From Nitrospirota bacterium (GTDB lineage: Bacteria > Nitrospirota > JACRHL01): a DNA stretch of 64,000 nt. The stretch lies in contig JACRHL010000003.1 of assembly GCA_016212085.1 (NCBI GenBank), forward strand, positions 321,178-385,177. The letters run 5' to 3'. Shown in pieces: positions 17,516 through 58,827 of this stretch. The first letter of the stretch is position 1. Each line of letters opens with the position of its first letter. The translations under genes and the position numbers were made by a program. Under the pieces are notes generated by a model. The model was not told the DNA's origin. It did no database searches and worked only from the letters and a program-made list of their open reading frames with translations.

Positions 17516-17765
17516 AGGCTCTTGTAACCCGGGTCCGGGGTGTCGGAAATGTCGGAATGGGGCGCGCGGGCGCTGTCGGGTCCGCCGGGCCTTGCGGAAG
17601 ACCCCGGCTTAAGAGGGGAATTATTACCGTAACAGGCAGGGACCGTCAAGGACGGCGCGCCCTTGCGCCACCCGGCCGGGGCGCTTATAGTGGGCTTGCC
17701 GCGCGCCCCCAAAAACACCCCCGGAGCGGGGCGCATCCCCCCGGTTCAGCCCCCAGGTTCTGCCC

Positions 17766-18170
17766 ATGACCGACGGATTCTATTACGCGATACTCATATC
17801 CTGGCTGCTGTCGTTCCTGTTCTACGGCCTCGCCGGAGGGCTGATCAAGGCCCGCACGGTCGGCCGCACGCCGCACATCATGCTCACCGTGGGCGGCTTC
17901 ATGACCGACTTCGTCGCCTACTTCTTCCAGACCCAGCACCTGGTGATCCTGGCGGCCACCGTGCCCGGCTTCGCCCTGGACCCGGCGCTGCGCGGCTGGC
18001 AGACCGTGGCGACAAACCTGTCCATGGCCATGTATTGCGTGACGGCGATGTTCGGCTTCGCGCGCGTTGTCGGGTGGCACGGCGTGGGCCGCTGGCACGT
18101 GCCCGTGGCGCTGCTGTTCGTGGTCAACCTGGTGACGGCGCGGACCCTCTACTGGCGGCTGATTAACTAG
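17766..18170 (+). CDS. hypothetical small membrane protein
   Basis: 134-aa ORF with 3-4 predicted TM helices; ends with TAG inside the CTAG that flanks the downstream repeat; no recognised family. Confidence 0.4.
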   Translation: MTDGFYYAILISWLLSFLFYGLAGGLIKARTVGRTPHIMLTVGGFMTDFVAYFFQTQHLVILAATVPGFALDPALRGWQTVATNLSMAMYCVTAMFGFARVVGWHGVGRWHVPVALLFVVNLVTARTLYWRLIN

Positions 18171-47128: not shown

Positions 47129-47323
47129 CTATTGGCCGAGTTGGCGTGGCGGGCACGGCGTGCTGCCGAACGAGCAGAACACGCAGCAATCCCCCTGGCG
47201 GGGCCGCAGCATGGTTCCGCAGCCCGTGCACCGGTAGAAGAACTGGCACGCGTCCGTGGGCATGGCCTCGGTTTTCCGGTGTCCGCAATGGGGGCAGGTG
47301 AGGGTGGAACTCAGGATCGGCAC
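47129..47323 (-). CDS. small cysteine-rich protein (CPHCG ... GDCCVFCS), putative metal-binding
   Basis: 64 aa with 8 Cys; GTG start preceded by AGGAGGAA; last gene of the mer-type operon. Confidence 0.5.
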   Translation of the reverse strand: MPILSSTLTCPHCGHRKTEAMPTDACQFFYRCTGCGTMLRPRQGDCCVFCSFGSTPCPPRQLGQ

Positions 47324-47523
47324 GACGGTTTCCTCCTGATCAGGGCCCATGCGATCATGCCCACGAAGCATGCCAGGGCCGGCAGCAACACGTAGTTCAG
47401 CCACCCCACCCACGCCGACAGGCCCAAGGCGCCCAGCAGGATCACCAGCGCGGGCGTGAAGCAGCAGACGGCGGCGAGGGTGGTGCCGGCGATTCCGGTC
47501 CCGAGCAGTCTCTTGTCCGTCAT
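47311..47523 (-). CDS. merF: mercury transporter MerF-like
   Basis: 70 aa, two TM helices, vicinal Cys (LAAVCCFTPALVILLG), C-terminal Cys; ATG overlaps merB stop (ATGA). Confidence 0.75.
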   Translation of the reverse strand: MTDKRLLGTGIAGTTLAAVCCFTPALVILLGALGLSAWVGWLNYVLLPALACFVGMIAWALIRRKPSCRS

Positions 47524-48302
47524 CGTGATGTCCTTCGCGGGTTGGATGCAAGGGTTGAAAGCGGCGCCAGGAGCGGCGCGAAGATGGCCTTGCCGACCTG
47601 GAGCCCCTCGTCGATGGAGAGGCGCACACCCGGCGCGCCCCCTGGTTGAGATTGGCGCCAGGATACGAGGTGCTCGTCGGAGCAGAAGAACGCCAGCGCC
47701 GGGCAGAGGGTGTCGGCGGCACAGCCGCCGGTGTTCCTCGCCCCCGCCCAGACCACGGCGCCCTCGGGCGCCACGGCCTCCAGGGTAGCGCCCCGGTCTC
47801 GGGTGGTGACATGGACGGCCGCGCCGCAAGTGGCGCAGGCCGAGTCGATGGCGGTGTCTGTGCGATACATGGCCCCGGCGCCCAGGGCGTCGATGGCGCA
47901 CATGGCGTTCAGCACCTGGCCGCCCAGCCGTACCCGGTGCCCGGTTTCCCGGTCCCGGAACGGGTAGGCCCCCGTCACGTCGCCGTGTGCGTCCAGCACC
48001 ACCAGGTCGCGCCCTTCCAGTTGCCGCAGCAGGCGGCGTACCTCGTCCAGCGGCAGGTCGGCGGCGAGGTGTTCGACGGAAGGGGCACGGCCCCGATCCG
48101 CATAGCCATCGAGCACGGCCCGCCGCACGCGGTCCTCCGCCTCCCCCATGCCGGTCCAGCACCGTTCGGCGTCGAATGCGGCGAGGATCGCGGCCAGTGC
48201 CCGACGGGCCGCCTCCGAGGTGATTGCCGACCAATCCGGGAAGGTCACGCCGGGTCCGATGGAGATTTCGAGGGGGGTCCGGGTGGGTCGCGGTATGTCC
48301 AT
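47520..48302 (-). CDS. merB: organomercurial lyase
   Basis: Catalytic-region match (NAMCAIDALG with Cys/Asp, later Cys cluster); ~45-aa N-terminal extension; GGAGG RBS before ATG 48302. Confidence 0.7.
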   Translation of the reverse strand: MDIPRPTRTPLEISIGPGVTFPDWSAITSEAARRALAAILAAFDAERCWTGMGEAEDRVRRAVLDGYADRGRAPSVEHLAADLPLDEVRRLLRQLEGRDLVVLDAHGDVTGAYPFRDRETGHRVRLGGQVLNAMCAIDALGAGAMYRTDTAIDSACATCGAAVHVTTRDRGATLEAVAPEGAVVWAGARNTGGCAADTLCPALAFFCSDEHLVSWRQSQPGGAPGVRLSIDEGLQVGKAIFAPLLAPLSTLASNPRRTSR

Positions 48303-48322
48303 GCGCTGGCCCTCCATGCTCA

Positions 48323-48465
48323 GGGCACCTCTATTAACCGTCGCGAGCGCTCCGATTGCAAGGCGGACGGAGCGGAGAACCCGAGACATATCTGGGTGAT
48401 AGGCGAGGGTTCGAGCACCGCCCAACGCAGCAATCGGAGCGCGCAGTAGGTTAATAGAGGTGCCC
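48323..48465. mobile_element. 143-bp MITE, family B (inside mer operon, between merP and merB)
   Basis: TIRs GGGCACCTCTATTAACC / GGTTAATAGAGGTGCCC; 4-bp duplication CTCA on both sides. Confidence 0.75.
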
Positions 48466-48466
48466 C

Positions 48467-48748
48467 TCACTCGACCGGCCGCGAGGGGTAGCCGGCGTTG
48501 GTCGTCGCCCGGGTGAGGGCCCCCACGTCCGTGAGCACATCGTCGAACGTCACCACGGCTTGCTTGTGCAACAGGGACACCTTGACCGCCTTCACGCCGG
48601 GAACATGGGAAAGGGCCTTTTTCACGGTGATCGGGCAGGTGACGCAGGTCATCCGCTCCACCCCCAGGGTGACGGTCCGCTCCGTCGCGATGGCGTTTCC
48701 GGTGGACACCAGGAGAGCGACGGCCACCAGGATCGGTACAAGCTTCAT
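48467..48748 (-). CDS. merP: periplasmic mercury-binding protein
   Basis: Signal peptide plus HMA motif GMTCVTCPITVKKAL; 93 aa; AGGAGGG RBS. Confidence 0.85.
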   Translation of the reverse strand: MKLVPILVAVALLVSTGNAIATERTVTLGVERMTCVTCPITVKKALSHVPGVKAVKVSLLHKQAVVTFDDVLTDVGALTRATTNAGYPSRPVE

Positions 48749-48768
48749 CGGATCGTCCCTCCTTCCGT

Positions 48769-49155
48769 TCAGACACCCCCGTACAGGGGGGCCAGGTAGG
48801 GCAGCGCCAGGATCGCCAGCACCAGTAGCGCCGCGCTCCACAAGGCAATCTTCACCATCCGCCCGGAACCGGGCCGGGTGCACTCCCCCTCCGGCCCGCA
48901 GGCGGCCGCCGGCTTCCGGTAGGCGAGCCGGAACCCGGCGGCGAGCAGGACGACGGTCAGGGCCATGAAGTAGGGCTGGTACGGCGCCAGGGCCGTCAGC
49001 CCGCCCATCCAGGCGCCGCCCAACCCCAGGCTTACCAGCACCAGCGGCAGGATGCAGCAGGACGAGGCGGCGAGTGCCCCCAGCACGGCGCCGCCGGCGA
49101 CCACGCCGCGCCGGGCATGACCGCCGCCAATGTGCTCTCCACCCGCGTCCTTCAC
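48769..49155 (-). CDS. merT: mercuric ion transport protein
   Basis: First TM helix with vicinal Cys (LAASSCCILPLVLVSLG), second Cys pair (CGPEGEC); GTG start 49155 overlaps upstream stop (GTGA); alternative ATG 49218. Confidence 0.7.
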   Translation of the reverse strand: MKDAGGEHIGGGHARRGVVAGGAVLGALAASSCCILPLVLVSLGLGGAWMGGLTALAPYQPYFMALTVVLLAAGFRLAYRKPAAACGPEGECTRPGSGRMVKIALWSAALLVLAILALPYLAPLYGGV

Positions 49156-49418
49156 AGCGCCCGACCGACGCCCGCGGCTCGCAACCGCGCCTCGTCCACC
49201 CCCGCGCCCGCACAGCATTGGGCCAGGCGGCCATCCACCGCCACCGCCGGGAGCGCCCGCACCCCCAGATCGGCCGCCTTCGCCGCCACGGCGGGTGCGC
49301 GCATGTCCAGCACGCTCACCGCGCACGCGGGGCAGGCGAGCCGCTCCACGAGGCGGACCGCCTCCTCGCACACGGGGCACCCGGCGCTGAATACCTCGAC
49401 CCTGCGTTTGTCGGTCAT
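49152..49418 (-). CDS. thioredoxin-fold protein with CPxC active site
   Basis: 88 aa; RVEVFSAGCPVCEEA...LPAVAVDGRL resembles small thioredoxin-family proteins; GGAGGAA RBS; first gene after the mer promoter. Confidence 0.6.
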   Translation of the reverse strand: MTDKRRVEVFSAGCPVCEEAVRLVERLACPACAVSVLDMRAPAVAAKAADLGVRALPAVAVDGRLAQCCAGAGVDEARLRAAGVGRAL

Positions 49419-49518
49419 CGTTCTTCCTCCCGACTTGCGTGGCCGCCGCCCCCGGAAAACGGGTTTGGCGGCCGTGCGGTTCCATACCTGGCAGGGGCCG
49501 CGTGCCCCCTCTTCTGCT

Positions 49519-54641: not shown

Positions 54642-55027
54642 CGGTGTGCTTCCTCAACTGTATCCCTGGCGGCCGGGGCCCCATCACCCGCCCGTCGCCA
54701 CCCCGATCCCGAAAATTTTCGTGTATTATTACACGTTCCCGGAACGATTCCCCAACCCGTGCCGTTGGGGAGATGCATGCCGCGCGCCCGGCCGGACTCG
54801 GACAACGGAATGTCCGATCCGGCGCCGGCGCCGTTCAAGATTGCACGGTCGGCGCCCGTATTCGCGACGGGCGGCGGGCCCGCCGCCCGCGCTGCGCGGC
54901 CGGTCCGGCACCTCGCCGGACCCCGAACCGGGGTGGCATCCCCATTGCTATAACACTGCACCCGGTTCCCGGCCGGCCAGGATGGCCACCAGGGAATCCC
55001 TTCTCAAGGAAACGCCGCAAGGACGCC

Positions 55028-57121
55028 ATGCCGCCGCTTCACGCCACATCCTTCCCCGTCGTCGGCCCTCCATCACGGGCACGGAGGGGGGTGTATTTTT
55101 TTCCGGCGGGTGGCGGCATTTTGGCATTGCTGCTGATCCTATTGTTGCCGGCGCCCCTGTGGGCCGCCTCCATCAGCCTGACCTGGAGCCCCAATCCGGA
55201 GCCGGACCTGGGCGGCTACATCGCCTCGTACGGTATCGCGAAGGGCAGCTACACGGCCCACCAGGATTTTGGCGGCGCCACCCAGGGCAGCCTGAACGGG
55301 CTGACGCCGGGGCAGACCTATTACGTCGCCCTCAAGGCCTACGACCAGAACGGCAACCAGAGTGCCTATTCGGACGAGATCCGGCTCACCGCGCCACTGG
55401 TGGATGACACGCCGCCCACCCTGGTGACGGTGACCACCCCCAACCCCACCACCGTGCTGGTCACCTTCTCCGAGCCGGTGGACCCGTTGCTGGCGGCGGA
55501 CCCGGCCCACTACCTCATCGACGGCATCGTGCAGCCGGTCTCGGCGGTGCCGGGGGCGGACGGCCTCACGGTGCGGCTGACCACCTTCGTGCAGTTGCAC
55601 GGCCAATCCCATGCGGTTCAGGTTAACGGCGTGGCGGACGCGGCCGGCAACCCCATCGTGACCATAAGCCGCGCCTACACGGTGGACCTGGGGCTGAGCG
55701 TGACCGTTTCGGCCCCGGCGGGCCATGCGGTGGCGCCGCTGCTCGCCGGCACCTCCCTGTATGGCGATGCGGACGTGCCGGTGGCCGATGTGGCGCCGGA
55801 ACTCACCGGGGCCATGCTGGTGCAAACCCTTCAGGCGGACCGGGCCGGCACCGGCACCGACCTCCTGCACCTGTCCGTGGACCGGGACGCCCTGCTGTTC
55901 GTGGCCTACGACCCCCTGGCCGCCACCCCGCCGGACTGGCTCACCGGCGCCTTCGTCCCGGCGGGGGCGGGGCCGGCGGGCGCCGGCGGCGCGCCGCTGG
56001 CCCTGTGGGCGCGCAACATCCCTGCGGGCGGCATCATGCTGGGCGGCAACGGCGGCCCCGGCGCCGTGAACCCCGGCGATCAGTACGCCGTGCTGGCACT
56101 GCCCATGGGCACGGAAACCACCCCCTGGGACGCGGACGGCGACACCATGCCGGACACCTGGGAGCAGACCGTCGGGCTGGACCCCGCGCGCTTCGACGCC
56201 CATGCGGACGCCAACGGCGACGGCCTCACGAACCTCCAGGCCATGTGGCTGGGAGCCGACCCGCTGGCGTCCCCCGCCGGCCCGGCCCCGGCGGGCAACC
56301 GCGCCCCGCTGGCGCTGCTGGACGACACGGTGGTGGCCACCGCCGGCCAGCCGCTGACCCTGGACGGCGGCGCCAGCGCCGACCCGGATGGCAACCCCCT
56401 GTCCTTCGGCTGGGCGCAGGCCGCCGGAACCGCCGTGGACCTGACCGGGCAGGGCACGGCCACCGCCACCTTCACGCCCGCCGCCGCCGGACTGTACATA
56501 TTCCGCCTGACCGTGTCCGACGGCCACGCGGCGGGCGCCACCACCGTGTACGTGGAGGTCTACGACAGCGTCGTCACCAGCCTGCCCGCGGCCACCGAGG
56601 GCTCCCTGGCCGTCACCCAGGGCACGCTGGCGGGTGCCGCCCTGGACCTGTTCCCGGGCGCCCTGGACAAGCCGCGCCAGATCGCCATCGGCGAACGGGC
56701 GCTGCCGGCGCCCCTGCCCGCCGGGCACGAGGCGGCGGGGCCGGTGCTGCACTTCTCCCCCTCCGGCGTGACGCTGCTGACGGCGGGCGTGGTGCAGGTG
56801 CCATACGCCCCGCCCGGGGACGCGGAACCGCTGGACACGGTGCGGGTACTCATGTGGTACGACCCCGCCCTGGGCGCCTGGACGGAACTGGCCGGCGCCG
56901 CGCAGGACGCCGACACGCTGGATGCGGCGGTGGACCGCCTGGGCACCTTCGTGGTGAGCAAGACCCGGCTCACCACGTCCGGGGCCGGGGGGGGGTGCAG
57001 CGTGCTGGCCACGGCCCCGACGGGCCCGGCGGACGCGGCCCCCCTGTTGCTGCTGCTGGCGCTGATCGCCTTGCGCTGGATATGGCACCGGGCGCGCCGC
57101 CTGGCCGCCCGCCAACCCTGA
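55028..57121 (+). CDS. secreted multidomain protein (FN3, Ig-like, Ca-binding DxDxDG repeats, PKD) with C-terminal Cys/Gly-hydrophobic-Arg anchor
   Basis: Signal peptide; FN3-like [30 protein letters not shown] repeats, PKD-like block; C-terminus [41 protein letters not shown]. Confidence 0.7.
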
Positions 57122-57173: not shown

Positions 57174-57611
57174 CTAGAACTTGTGCTTGGTGATGGCGCG
57201 GTACAGCACCAGGAGCAGGAAGAAGGTCATCACCACCACCTCGATGCCGAGGATGAAGTAGCTCATCTTCTTGTCCCGGCGGTGGCGCTCCGCGTCCAGG
57301 TCGCCCGGCTGGTTGGGGGGCGGCTTGACCGGGCCGGCCTGGCGCGCCCGCTCCTGGGTGGCGCCCCGGCCCACGGAAACCCAGCGCACCCGGTCGTACT
57401 CGCCCTTGCTGACGGGGTCCCTCAGCACCGCGTAGGCGCGGTTGATCTCCTTGCAACGCTCCGTGGCCCACTCCTTGTCCGGGTGCAGGTCGGGGTGGCA
57501 CGTCTTGGCCAGGCGCTTGTGGGCCCGGGCGATGTCGTCCGCGCTGGCGCCGGGGGACAGGTCGAACAGGACATAGTAGTCGTTGTTCGGATCGTAGTGG
57601 ATCTCGCTCAC
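57174..57611 (-). CDS. J-domain (DnaJ-like) protein with C-terminal transmembrane helix
   Basis: DYYVLFDL...CHPDLHPDK...INRAYAVLRD (HPD motif), C-terminal TM YFILGIEVVVMTFFLLLVLY; GTG start with ggaaagg RBS; 26 nt downstream of VWA gene. Confidence 0.65.
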   Translation of the reverse strand: MSEIHYDPNNDYYVLFDLSPGASADDIARAHKRLAKTCHPDLHPDKEWATERCKEINRAYAVLRDPVSKGEYDRVRWVSVGRGATQERARQAGPVKPPPNQPGDLDAERHRRDKKMSYFILGIEVVVMTFFLLLVLYRAITKHKF

Positions 57612-57636
57612 GCGGGCCCTTTCCGGCAAAGCCGCC

Positions 57637-58827
57637 TCAGCCCATGCCGCCGGCGGTGAGCAGGGGGATCTTCTTGGCGTCGGAGAGCGCCTCGAACTCC
57701 GACTCCAGCACCCGCACCTCGGCCACCGGGGTGAACTTGCCGCCGGTGACCTCGGCGATGCGCCTGAGCAGCGGCTCGTCATAGCTGACCCGGTTGCGGG
57801 CGTCCTCGCGGCCCACGCCGATGGTATCGATCACCACGCCCATCATCTTGGCCTTGAAGGCCAGCTCCAGCACCAGGTCGCTGCCGGTGGTGGTGGGGCA
57901 GCCGTCGGAGAGCAGAATGGCGCGGCGCAGGCCGCCGGCGTCCGCCAGCAGCTCCAGCGTGTATTCCAGCCCCTCGAACATGGCGGTGCGGCCATAGGGG
58001 GAGAGGCGTCCGGCACGGGCACGCAGGCGCGGGAAGTCGTCGGACGGCTCGCACACCAGTTCGCACGCCTCGCCAAACGTGACCAGCCCCACCAGGTCGT
58101 GCTCGCGGGCCCGCGCCTTGCTTTGCAGCAACCGGTCGATGGCCTCGCGGGTGGCCCGCATCTTACTGGCGCGGAAACCCAGCGCCTCGTCCATGCTGCC
58201 GGATGCGTCGATGAGCAGCACCAGGGTTTCGTAGGGGACGATCTCGATCAGGTCGCCGATGGCCACCTGGAGCATGCCGCGCGCCATGGGGTTGAGGCGC
58301 GCCACCGCCTCGTCCCCATGGGCACCGGCCTCCACCCGGGCCGGCACCTGGGTGACGCCCGCCTTGATGTTCACGTAGTCGCCCACGGACAGGCCCAGGT
58401 TGTCGCGCATGCGGTGCGACAGGCGCACCAGCGGCTCCGCGTCGTGCTCGTCGCCCTTGATGGCGGACGCCACCTCGAGGGGGATCGCCGAGCTGGAGAT
58501 GGGGGTGGTGTTGATGAACGCCTGCACCGTGTGGCCCAGTTCCGCCCCGAGCAGGATGCGGGCGCGGGGATTGAGGCGGATCAGGTCCTTGCCATCGTCG
58601 GTGCGGGCCGAGATCGCCACCCGGCAGTTGACCGAGCGGCCGCCGTAACTCACCTTGAGCACGCTCCCCGCCACCACGTTCAAGCGCTTGCGCAACGATT
58701 CACACAGCCGGGCCTTGGGGATGCGGTCATCCGCGTCCTCGCGGAATCCCGCCGCGACCGTCAGCGCTGCCTCGGGCGGCGCGAGCGCGCTCCCCCGCCG
58801 GCCGGAAAACACCTGCAGAAATTTCAT
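57637..58827 (-). CDS. VWA-domain protein with two N-terminal Cdc48-N/AbrB-like beta-barrel domains
   Basis: MIDAS DASGSM ... SDG ... DTIGVG in C-terminal half; tandem N-terminal repeats (RLNPRARILLGAELGHTV / RLNPMARGMLQVAIGDLI); GGAG RBS. Confidence 0.75.
   Translation of the reverse strand: MKFLQVFSGRRGSALAPPEAALTVAAGFREDADDRIPKARLCESLRKRLNVVAGSVLKVSYGGRSVNCRVAISARTDDGKDLIRLNPRARILLGAELGHTVQAFINTTPISSSAIPLEVASAIKGDEHDAEPLVRLSHRMRDNLGLSVGDYVNIKAGVTQVPARVEAGAHGDEAVARLNPMARGMLQVAIGDLIEIVPYETLVLLIDASGSMDEALGFRASKMRATREAIDRLLQSKARAREHDLVGLVTFGEACELVCEPSDDFPRLRARAGRLSPYGRTAMFEGLEYTLELLADAGGLRRAILLSDGCPTTTGSDLVLELAFKAKMMGVVIDTIGVGREDARNRVSYDEPLLRRIAEVTGGKFTPVAEVRVLESEFEALSDAKKIPLLTAGGMG

Follow-up and report, generated by a model that had tools for sequence, protein, structure and literature searches.

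C-terminal sorting tags determine which proteins reach the bacterial surface, and to our knowledge every newly recognised tag has so far led to a new sorting enzyme. Cysteine-type tags have, as far as we know, been tied to CPBP proteases just in 2023–2025, and only in Myxococcota, some proteobacteria, Synergistetes and Thermococcales. Four such tags, MYXO-, JDVT-, Synerg- and CGP-CTERM, are Cys-containing tripartite signals, and the partner of each is a glutamic intramembrane protease of the CPBP/Rce1 type; the cysteine is thought to be lipidated first, and an invariant Cys is the hallmark of CPBP-processed signals (Haft 2023, bioRxiv 10.1101/2023.06.07.544157; Guo et al. 2025, PMC11980579). 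Cleavage of the MYXO-CTERM signal of TraA by MrtX needs the conserved cysteines and can be reproduced in E. coli (Haft 2023, bioRxiv 10.1101/2023.06.07.544157; Guo et al. 2025, PMC11980579). MYXO-CTERM (TIGR03901) is processed by the myxosortases MrtX, MrtC and MrtP of the CPBP family, and JDVT-CTERM by MrtJ. Here we analyze the C-terminal tail of a 697-residue secreted protein (hereafter the query) encoded on 64,000 nucleotides of a Nitrospirota contig (JACRHL010000003.1, positions 321,178 to 385,177; hereafter the window), and ask the reader to consider, at about an even chance, that by analogy this tail is a variant of the Cys-type tripartite signal, in which the Cys would be modified and the protein then cleaved within the membrane.

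In the tail, a flexible Gly-rich linker carries the GGC motif and is followed by a spacer rich in Pro and Gly; next comes a short hydrophobic helix, which begins with a GP-x-(D/Q)-A-A element, and last an Arg/Lys cluster. In the query these parts are arranged as follows:

55028–57121, + strand: coding sequence of the 697-residue secreted fn3/Ig/PKD protein, stop codon included (ATG start, Pfam matches, GC content at third codon positions, GC3)
56972–57001, + strand: Gly-rich signature motif, residues 649–658, with GGC invariant across 16 aligned tails
57002–57025, + strand: spacer VLATAPTG, residues 659–666, variable in length and sequence (about 6–16 residues among relatives)
57026–57085, + strand: helix, opening with the GP-x-D-A-A element and continuing as the hydrophobic core, residues 667–686 (AlphaFold2, 16-tail alignment)
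57086–57118, + strand: basic cluster, residues 687–697, with R683 just ahead, taken as the cytoplasmic end (R683 and R691 invariant)

A sequence-only reading of this DNA had placed GAGGGC, a linker, a helix and an Arg cluster at 56980–57121, at the end of a 697-residue FN3/PKD protein; translation and Pfam bear this out, with those coordinates encoding G652–P697 plus the stop codon. Cys657 (codon TGC at 56996–56998) is the sole Cys of the protein and lies 41 residues from its end. In an AlphaFold2 model built from five sequences (mean predicted local distance difference test score, pLDDT, 58), residues 649–666 are disordered (pLDDT 29–36) and residues 667–694 form a single 28-residue helix (pLDDT 72–81).

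All four orthologue clusters (P0002–P0005, 44–48% identity) retain the tail, and the five-sequence orthologue alignment shows invariant columns at G652, G654–G656, C657, G666, L673, L676, R683 and R691. The tail Cys is also the sole Cys in P0004, P0005 and the deltaproteobacterial homologues from loci L069, L075 and L077. To reach further relatives, we scanned one genome per species with a full-length alignment, which gave 80 loci that have the N-terminal fn3/Ig part in common, and read each matching open reading frame (ORF) on to its stop codon. Relatives labelled Nitrospirota carry the same type of tail: SGGGGCGMIRPGGGDPPTPGDAAAMLSLIGVLIFVWLKK in L030, SSGGGCGMVIPTDGNPPGPGQAADMIVISGVILIMLLRRRR in L049 and SAGGGCTMTPADRPAGGPLDSAEWLGLIGLVLAGLLRK in L039 (Ca. 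Manganitrophaceae), and L046 has such tails on two adjacent genes. Scanning metagenomes with the C-terminal part of these relatives yielded about 16 further loci, whose tails read GGC-G-M-(I/V)-x-P-x-x-G-x-(P/R)-(P/S)-G-P-(G/A)-Q-A-A-D-(M/L), followed by 12–14 hydrophobic residues and R/K. Across the 16 aligned tails P667 of the GP pair and one Ala of the A670/A671 pair are near-invariant, an R/K cluster is found in all related tails, and the uncharged helix core spans just 12–16 residues in most members.

The tail is found on a range of protein architectures. It is kept in P0005, where the last domain of about 130 residues is absent, and it terminates fn3-repeat proteins of 600–1300 residues (L030, L049, L039, L092–L107), small one-fn3 proteins (L106 1866–2723 and the second gene of L046) and, in a GGGGCGM-type form, an S8 subtilase with fn3 (L152 6700–10195, + strand, on a frameshifted nanopore contig). 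This subtilase gene lies about 4 kb downstream of genes resembling those of type II secretion systems and type IV pili (T2SSF, T2SSE, PilN, PilO). Other distant fn3 relatives end differently as judged by eye, with LPXTG-like ends in P0010, P0014 and P0015 and ends like those of type IX secretion substrates in relatives from KSB1 and Cytophagia metagenome-assembled genomes. The other proteins with this tail, which the sequence-only reading had proposed to look for, thus exist, all of them in other genomes and metagenome contigs. A search of 1.84 billion representative proteins with a profile of the tail, which has too little length for E-values at the scale of a whole database, recovered the orthologue clusters and just one further protein, P0018 (3664 residues), which carries three MYXO-CTERM-like tails. 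Homologue searches with tail profiles returned nothing with one profile and two fragments with the other, and one of these fragments (P0021) led to locus L152.

The likeness between the query tail and its relatives was evaluated with an independent tail hidden Markov model (HMM), trained on 14 tails of the GGCGM subfamily with the query's own family left out. The query tail scores 17.4 bits and that of P0005 16.6 bits; none of 2000 shuffled query tails reaches 17.4 bits (maximum 11.3), and in a set of about 10,900 six-frame ORFs the query comes directly under the training set (E = 0.004). P0002 and P0004 receive negative scores, and the orthologous group therefore covers two tail flavours. A compositional artefact of a GC-rich genome (70% in the window) was considered and rejected: the host genomes of the 16 tails span 45–71% GC, GGC is invariant in all 16, and the motif is still present at 45% GC. 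In a generic scan for a helix with a basic end across six frames of the window, only three ORFs were found, namely the target, a MerF C-terminus and a tail-anchored DnaJ protein. Judged from these alignments, the tail is a genuine, conserved and modular C-terminal module whose key feature is the invariant cysteine, and the tripartite layout described in the sequence-only reading is both real and conserved in orthologues over several architectures.

We compared the tails with the curated sorting-signal models of NCBIfam release 20 at E<=10, where the cut-offs are 20 bits for MYXO-CTERM (TIGR03901.2) and 27 bits for JDVT-CTERM (NF033191). For the query tail the best curated match is MYXO-CTERM (10.8–11.1 bits), followed by Synerg-CTERM (7 bits), and JDVT-CTERM gives no match. 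The tails of P0002 and P0004, scanned alone, score 20.6–20.7 bits on MYXO-CTERM and 21.5 and 25.1 bits on JDVT-CTERM, the latter under the cut-off; MYXO-CTERM is not among the matches of full-length P0002. P0005 reaches 16.3 bits on MYXO-CTERM and does not match JDVT-CTERM. The tails of L030, L049 and L046 match no curated model, and that of L039 only the WGxxGxxG models at a negligible level (8–9 bits, E 1–4). The C-terminal part of the query also aligns with the end of a model named 'myxosortase-dependent M36 metallopeptidase'. By the thresholds of the families themselves the tail lies outside every curated family, which fits the variant status suggested from the sequence.

No tail matched the PEP-CTERM, VPDSG-CTERM or GlyGly-CTERM models, and the predicted lack of a PEP or GlyGly consensus is accordingly upheld. 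A GlyGly-CTERM signal cut by rhombosortase, as might be imagined from the Gly run (GGG) ahead of the helix and the Arg cluster, is very improbable: besides the missing model match, the run is not at the edge of the hydrophobic core but 15 residues upstream of it, it is the Cys that is invariant, and the window membrane proteins include nothing rhomboid-like. The likeness to exosortase, rhombosortase or MYXO-CTERM signals put forward at first therefore stands in part; the nearest models are MYXO-CTERM and JDVT-CTERM (below cut-off), and the invariant Cys, the most diagnostic feature of the tail and one that the sequence-only reading had not singled out, points to the CPBP/myxosortase class, not to rhombosortase.

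With MYXO-CTERM the query shares the tripartite build, the invariant Cys in a Gly-rich motif, the helix and the Arg cluster, and in both cases the signal is borne by secreted proteins with Ig/PKD domains and by proteases. The two differ in that GCGC is frequent in MYXO-CTERM and the query has one Cys, and in the Asp at the start of the query helix; the transmembrane region of MYXO-CTERM signals is free of charged residues and Pro, whereas the query helix 667–694 has D669, P672 and R683. JDVT-CTERM resembles the query in its one invariant Cys, its Arg cluster and its Leu-rich helix, within or close to which lies an acidic residue, and it is known outside Myxococcota. Here too there are differences: a DP at Cys+9 is near-invariant in JDVT-CTERM, whereas the query has Asp at Cys+12 and the next Pro at Cys+15, and P0002 has DL at Cys+10. 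An adjacent MrtJ gene is absent in all four orthologous contexts (window, L002, L003/L004, L005); in the published JDVT set about half of the loci have an MrtJ gene within 4 kb.

A further connection is to the CFI-box, a putative sorting motif (NCBIfam NF041763) for which we know of neither a mechanism nor an enzyme; a literature search with its name and with sequence strings found no paper. Four deltaproteobacterial proteins (L069 9926–11158, L075 9914–11158, L077 9857–11158 and L084 2322–3551) share the last domain of the query (...YD..W.....LGTF.V) and end in GGGCFI(Q/K)(T/A)AGF, with eight residues from the Cys to the stop and no helix. Their GGGC occupies the same alignment columns as GGGC of the query, which aligns column for column with GGGCFIQTAGF; L084 has a second Cys, unlike the other three. 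Other deltaproteobacterial relatives carry GGCFI(S/A)T and then a spacer, a helix and a basic cluster, as do many CFI-box tails. The deltaproteobacterial tails score 12.9–14.2 bits on NF041763 against a cut-off of 15.9, and the query, with C-S-V at the core instead of C-F-I, does not match the model. Because CFI-type homologues keep the position of the Cys motif with or without a helix, the Cys motif, as far as the alignment goes, is the old, conserved element, and some lineages can dispense with the helix. The L069, L075 and L077 genes lie about 1.3 kb downstream of a membrane protein that by eye looks SecD-like, and L084 has the same neighbour on its upstream side.

Based on these comparisons, we consider the CPBP-dependent Cys-type class the first choice for the query, because of the sole invariant Cys, the borderline model matches and the homologues with eight residues after the Cys, a CAAX-like geometry. 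The sequence would be as follows: (i) the protein would be exported by Sec through its N-terminal signal peptide; (ii) the C-terminal helix would halt in the inner membrane, leaving the Arg cluster on the cytoplasmic side; (iii) the invariant Cys, about 10 residues outside the membrane, would be modified, by analogy most likely lipidated; (iv) a membrane-embedded sorting protease encoded elsewhere, most likely a glutamic protease of the CPBP/Rce1 type like those that process MYXO-CTERM and JDVT-CTERM, would cut off the helix; and (v) the fn3/PKD protein would stay tethered to the cell envelope via its new C-terminus. Since the helix-less homologues keep the position of the Cys motif, cleavage after a modified Cys, as in CAAX/Rce1 processing, would fit better than recognition of a motif at the membrane.

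Several observations weigh against assigning the tail to this class. The query stays under the cut-off of every curated sorting-signal model, and its spacer between Cys and helix is longer than in MYXO-CTERM and JDVT-CTERM. MYXO-CTERM is reported solely from Myxococcota and Bradymonadales, with 3–73 clients per proteome, and JDVT-CTERM solely from beta- and gamma-proteobacteria, whereas the present host is labelled Nitrospirota and only one such protein is visible in 64 kb of its genome. Every tail-bearing protein found has at least one fn3 domain, a feature they share because homology was the sole route to finding them. Finally, neither the window, nor the 11 kb that follow its right end, nor any of about 20 tail-bearing loci yielded a CPBP protease.

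The same absence of a processing enzyme, in the window, the 11 kb and the tail loci, would suit a permanent C-terminal transmembrane anchor, in which the query is a type I membrane protein that is not cleaved and whose Cys serves another use, such as a disulfide to a partner. The predicted 28-residue helix is long enough to span the membrane, the tail obeys the positive-inside rule, and in-frame sequence continues past the tail in L092 and L096, so that the tail is not always strictly terminal. We nevertheless hold a plain anchor to be rather unlikely. It leaves unexplained the invariant GGC in a disordered linker across genomes of 45–71% GC, with the Cys the only one in the protein, the conserved GP-x-(D/Q)-A-A with which the helix begins, the borderline MYXO-CTERM and JDVT-CTERM matches, and the reuse of the tail on unrelated architectures that include a secreted-type subtilase; the uncharged core of 12–16 residues in most members also speaks against it.

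The in-frame continuations have a form of their own. In L092 (9167–10927) and L096 (9314–10951) the reading frame runs on from the tail, without a stop codon, into a lipoprotein-type signal peptide and then another fn3 protein, and P0018 contains three units of tail plus in-frame continuation. As read from the translations, the membrane topology of a tail followed by a signal peptide would agree with the cutting of a polyprotein into separate units.

A different set of neighbours brings in the exosortase systems. Among members of the GGCGM subfamily, PrsK is encoded right beside the tail gene and divergently from it in L049, L092 and L102 (404 bits on TIGR02916 for L049), with PrsR beside the tail gene in the same three loci; the only such gene in L096 encodes a more distant sigma-54 regulator, 36% identical to PrsR. 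PrsT occurs in L030, L049 and L098, and an exosortase of no named subtype is encoded downstream of the tail gene, at 55 nt in L049 and at 2.4 kb in L098 (122 bits on TIGR02602, cut-off 105.55; best named match XrtC at 174 bits, under the cut-off of 300). Canonical PEP-CTERM genes with VPEP tails lie near tail genes of this subfamily, and association with a PEP-CTERM system recurs in 5 of about 12 tail loci that have enough flank. The association is real and repeated, and may reflect either co-regulation in an extracellular-matrix locus or processing.

If it reflects processing, the tail would be a non-canonical client of an exosortase (PEP-CTERM/EpsH), which, alone or with a CPBP protease of the locus, would read GP-x-(D/Q)-A-A at the membrane face and remove the helix. 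Such a client would share with PEP-CTERM proteins the tripartite architecture and the sigma-54-type promoter, and the sigma-54 element found upstream of the query gene and its orthologues (below) would suit control by a PrsR-type activator. NCBIfam also holds models that join the two enzyme classes: TIGR04162 describes an exosortase fused to a CPBP-type protease, and TIGR03008 (pepcterm_CAAX) a CAAX-protease-related protein of PEP-CTERM systems. Both are matched by the sole CPBP protein that we saw (L071 16331–17053, + strand, 240 residues, motifs EELLMR, FTLGH and HGTTN), which scores 79.2 bits on TIGR03008 against a cut-off of 81.05 and shares a deltaproteobacterial contig with CFI-box proteins (L068) about 23 kb off. 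We nonetheless judge exosortase processing unlikely. The query has no PEP motif, matches neither PEP-CTERM, VPDSG nor other exosortase-signal models, has a helix that is not of the Gly-zipper type (LLGxGLxGL) and keeps its invariant Cys distant from the helix. The same loci hold canonical VPEP proteins, whose tails in L049, L092, L098 and L102 are unlike that of the query and which are the evident clients of the exosortase encoded there; the synteny possibly reflects co-regulation within an extracellular-matrix locus, not processing. Neither PrsK, PrsR, PrsT nor an exosortase lies near the query or its orthologues (window, L002, L003, L005), and the helix-less homologues of the Cys motif cannot be exosortase clients.

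Returning to Cys-type processing, we searched for the enzyme that it would need. No CPBP protease, exosortase or rhomboid was found in the window by a scan for motifs and transmembrane segments followed by Pfam, or in the 11 kb past its right end, which encode an NTP-transferase, MoeA, an HDOD protein, a TPR protein, a sigma/anti-sigma pair of the extracytoplasmic function type and MazG. This is consistent with the proposal, made from the sequence, that the enzyme is encoded elsewhere. The multi-spanning membrane proteins of the window are CobS, MgtC, EamA, MerT, MerF, an RDD protein, a histidine kinase and MgtE (the last by sequence reading rather than by the scan), and a membrane ORF of 167 residues (17663–18163) has no match in Pfam or NCBIfam. 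Jackhmmer searches of 150 loci with exosortase and CPBP queries added one exosortase (L098) and no further CPBP protein. Non-adjacency is expected for a housekeeping sortase, yet it provides no evidence in favour of one. Two sets of candidates were examined and set aside: a conserved M23 peptidase beside trpS looks like a periplasmic peptidoglycan endopeptidase retained by local synteny, and the downstream TldD/PmbA and RDD proteins are not conserved beside the orthologues.

Taken more broadly, the tails may define a new Cys-containing sorting-domain family in Nitrospirota and related lineages, of the form GGC, spacer, GP-x-(Q/D)-A-A-D, helix and R/K, with a Cys motif homologous to the orphan CFI-box and with one subfamily fixed in PrsK/PrsR/PrsT-exosortase loci; we offer this only tentatively, as a possibility that is open to considerable doubt. 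If it is true, the tails would supply clients for a protease that so far has none, such as an unnamed exosortase subtype or the CPBP 'CAAX protease-related protein' (TIGR03008) of PEP-CTERM loci, and Cys-dependent C-terminal sorting would reach well past the Myxococcota. The known class would grow with a Nitrospirota Cys-type tag that curated models miss and that is tied to the CFI-box by homology and to exosortase regulatory loci by synteny. The Nitrospirota include environmentally important nitrifiers and manganese oxidisers, and a model of the tail would provide a handle for phylogenetic profiling to find the enzyme and to annotate the surface proteomes of mostly uncultured lineages.

The remainder of the query gene is organized as follows:

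54644–57121, + strand: ORF, open throughout
55028–55165, + strand: Sec-type signal peptide, residues 1–46, n-region RARR, then a hydrophobic core, cleavage site LWA|AS (by sequence reading)
55163–55657, + strand: fn3 (residues 46–118), then Big_5 Ig-like domain (residues 121–210) (Pfam PF00041, 31.4 bits; PF13205, 19.8 bits)
56324–56560, + strand: K319L-like PKD domain, residues 433–511 (Pfam PF22352, 50.7 bits)
56567–56968, + strand: C-terminal beta-sandwich domain, residues ~514–647, ending LGTFVV (AlphaFold2 strands with pLDDT 58–85; homology)

The ATG at 55028 gives exactly 697 residues, is preceded by AAGGA and is also the start used by independent gene calls on Logan assemblies; GC3 of the gene is 0.88. 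The NCBI record (MBI5136068.1, 'hypothetical protein', on a 448-kb contig of a metagenome-assembled genome labelled Nitrospirota) instead starts at a TTG at 55121, 31 codons later, for a product of 666 residues. That TTG falls inside the hydrophobic core of the signal peptide, and the ATG at 55028 completes the signal peptide and fits the N-termini of the orthologues, whose AHA|AS and AWA|AT cleavage sites align with LWA|AS of the query. From the N-terminus the mature protein comprises fn3, Ig, an unassigned region, Asp-rich repeats, PKD, the beta-sandwich and the tail. In the AlphaFold2 model beta domains occupy residues 46–215 and 433–648, with pLDDT of about 80 across the fn3/Big_5 region; the Big_5 assignment rests partly on this model because its PF13205 score is under the Pfam cut-off of 23.6 bits. 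The beta-sandwich domain is homologous to the last domain of the deltaproteobacterial proteins that end in GGGCFIQTAGF.

Upstream of the gene lies one further element:

54934–54949, + strand: sigma-54-type -24/-12 element TGGCATCCCCATTGCT, 94 nt upstream of the ATG, the sole TGGCAYN5TTGCW match

This is the only match on both strands of the 64-kb window, where 0.09 are expected, and equivalent elements lie 86–156 nt upstream of the orthologues (L002 8865, L003 6874, L005 916). We found neither a sigma-70 promoter nor an intrinsic terminator around the target gene, and Rfam and tRNA scans of the window returned nothing. A sigma-54 promoter probably drives the gene. All orthologues are syntenic with a divergently transcribed trpS, and on the other side the neighbours in the window, L002, L003/L004 and L005 are DnaJ/VWA proteins, an ATP-grasp protein or other fn3 proteins. 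In the window a convergent gene directly downstream (57174–58827, - strand) encodes a DnaJ-domain protein with a C-terminal membrane anchor, beside which lies a CDC48_N + VWA protein.

Secreted proteins that end in PP(A/S)PPxNLxV(Q/N/K) followed by the stop codon are encoded just downstream of tail genes: L092 10920–12254 and 12257–14458; L095 3217–6006; L096 10935–12467; L098 10341–11765; L102 11154–12092 and 12177–13310; L106 7790–9577 and 9651–10907; L005 2750–4945 and 4961–8131. This end looks like a first fn3 strand left hanging at the C-terminus, and the N-terminal fn3 of the tail-protein family begins right behind the signal peptide; as far as such a comparison of sequences goes, the two features may hint at strand complementation between subunits.

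Elsewhere in the window, two mercury-transport ORFs are found at 47314–49485 (- strand), one with a MerT match and the other, of 307 residues, with a MerF match at its C-terminus. The GC3 gene filter finds almost nothing at about 45–50 kb, a region that may be of differing composition or origin.

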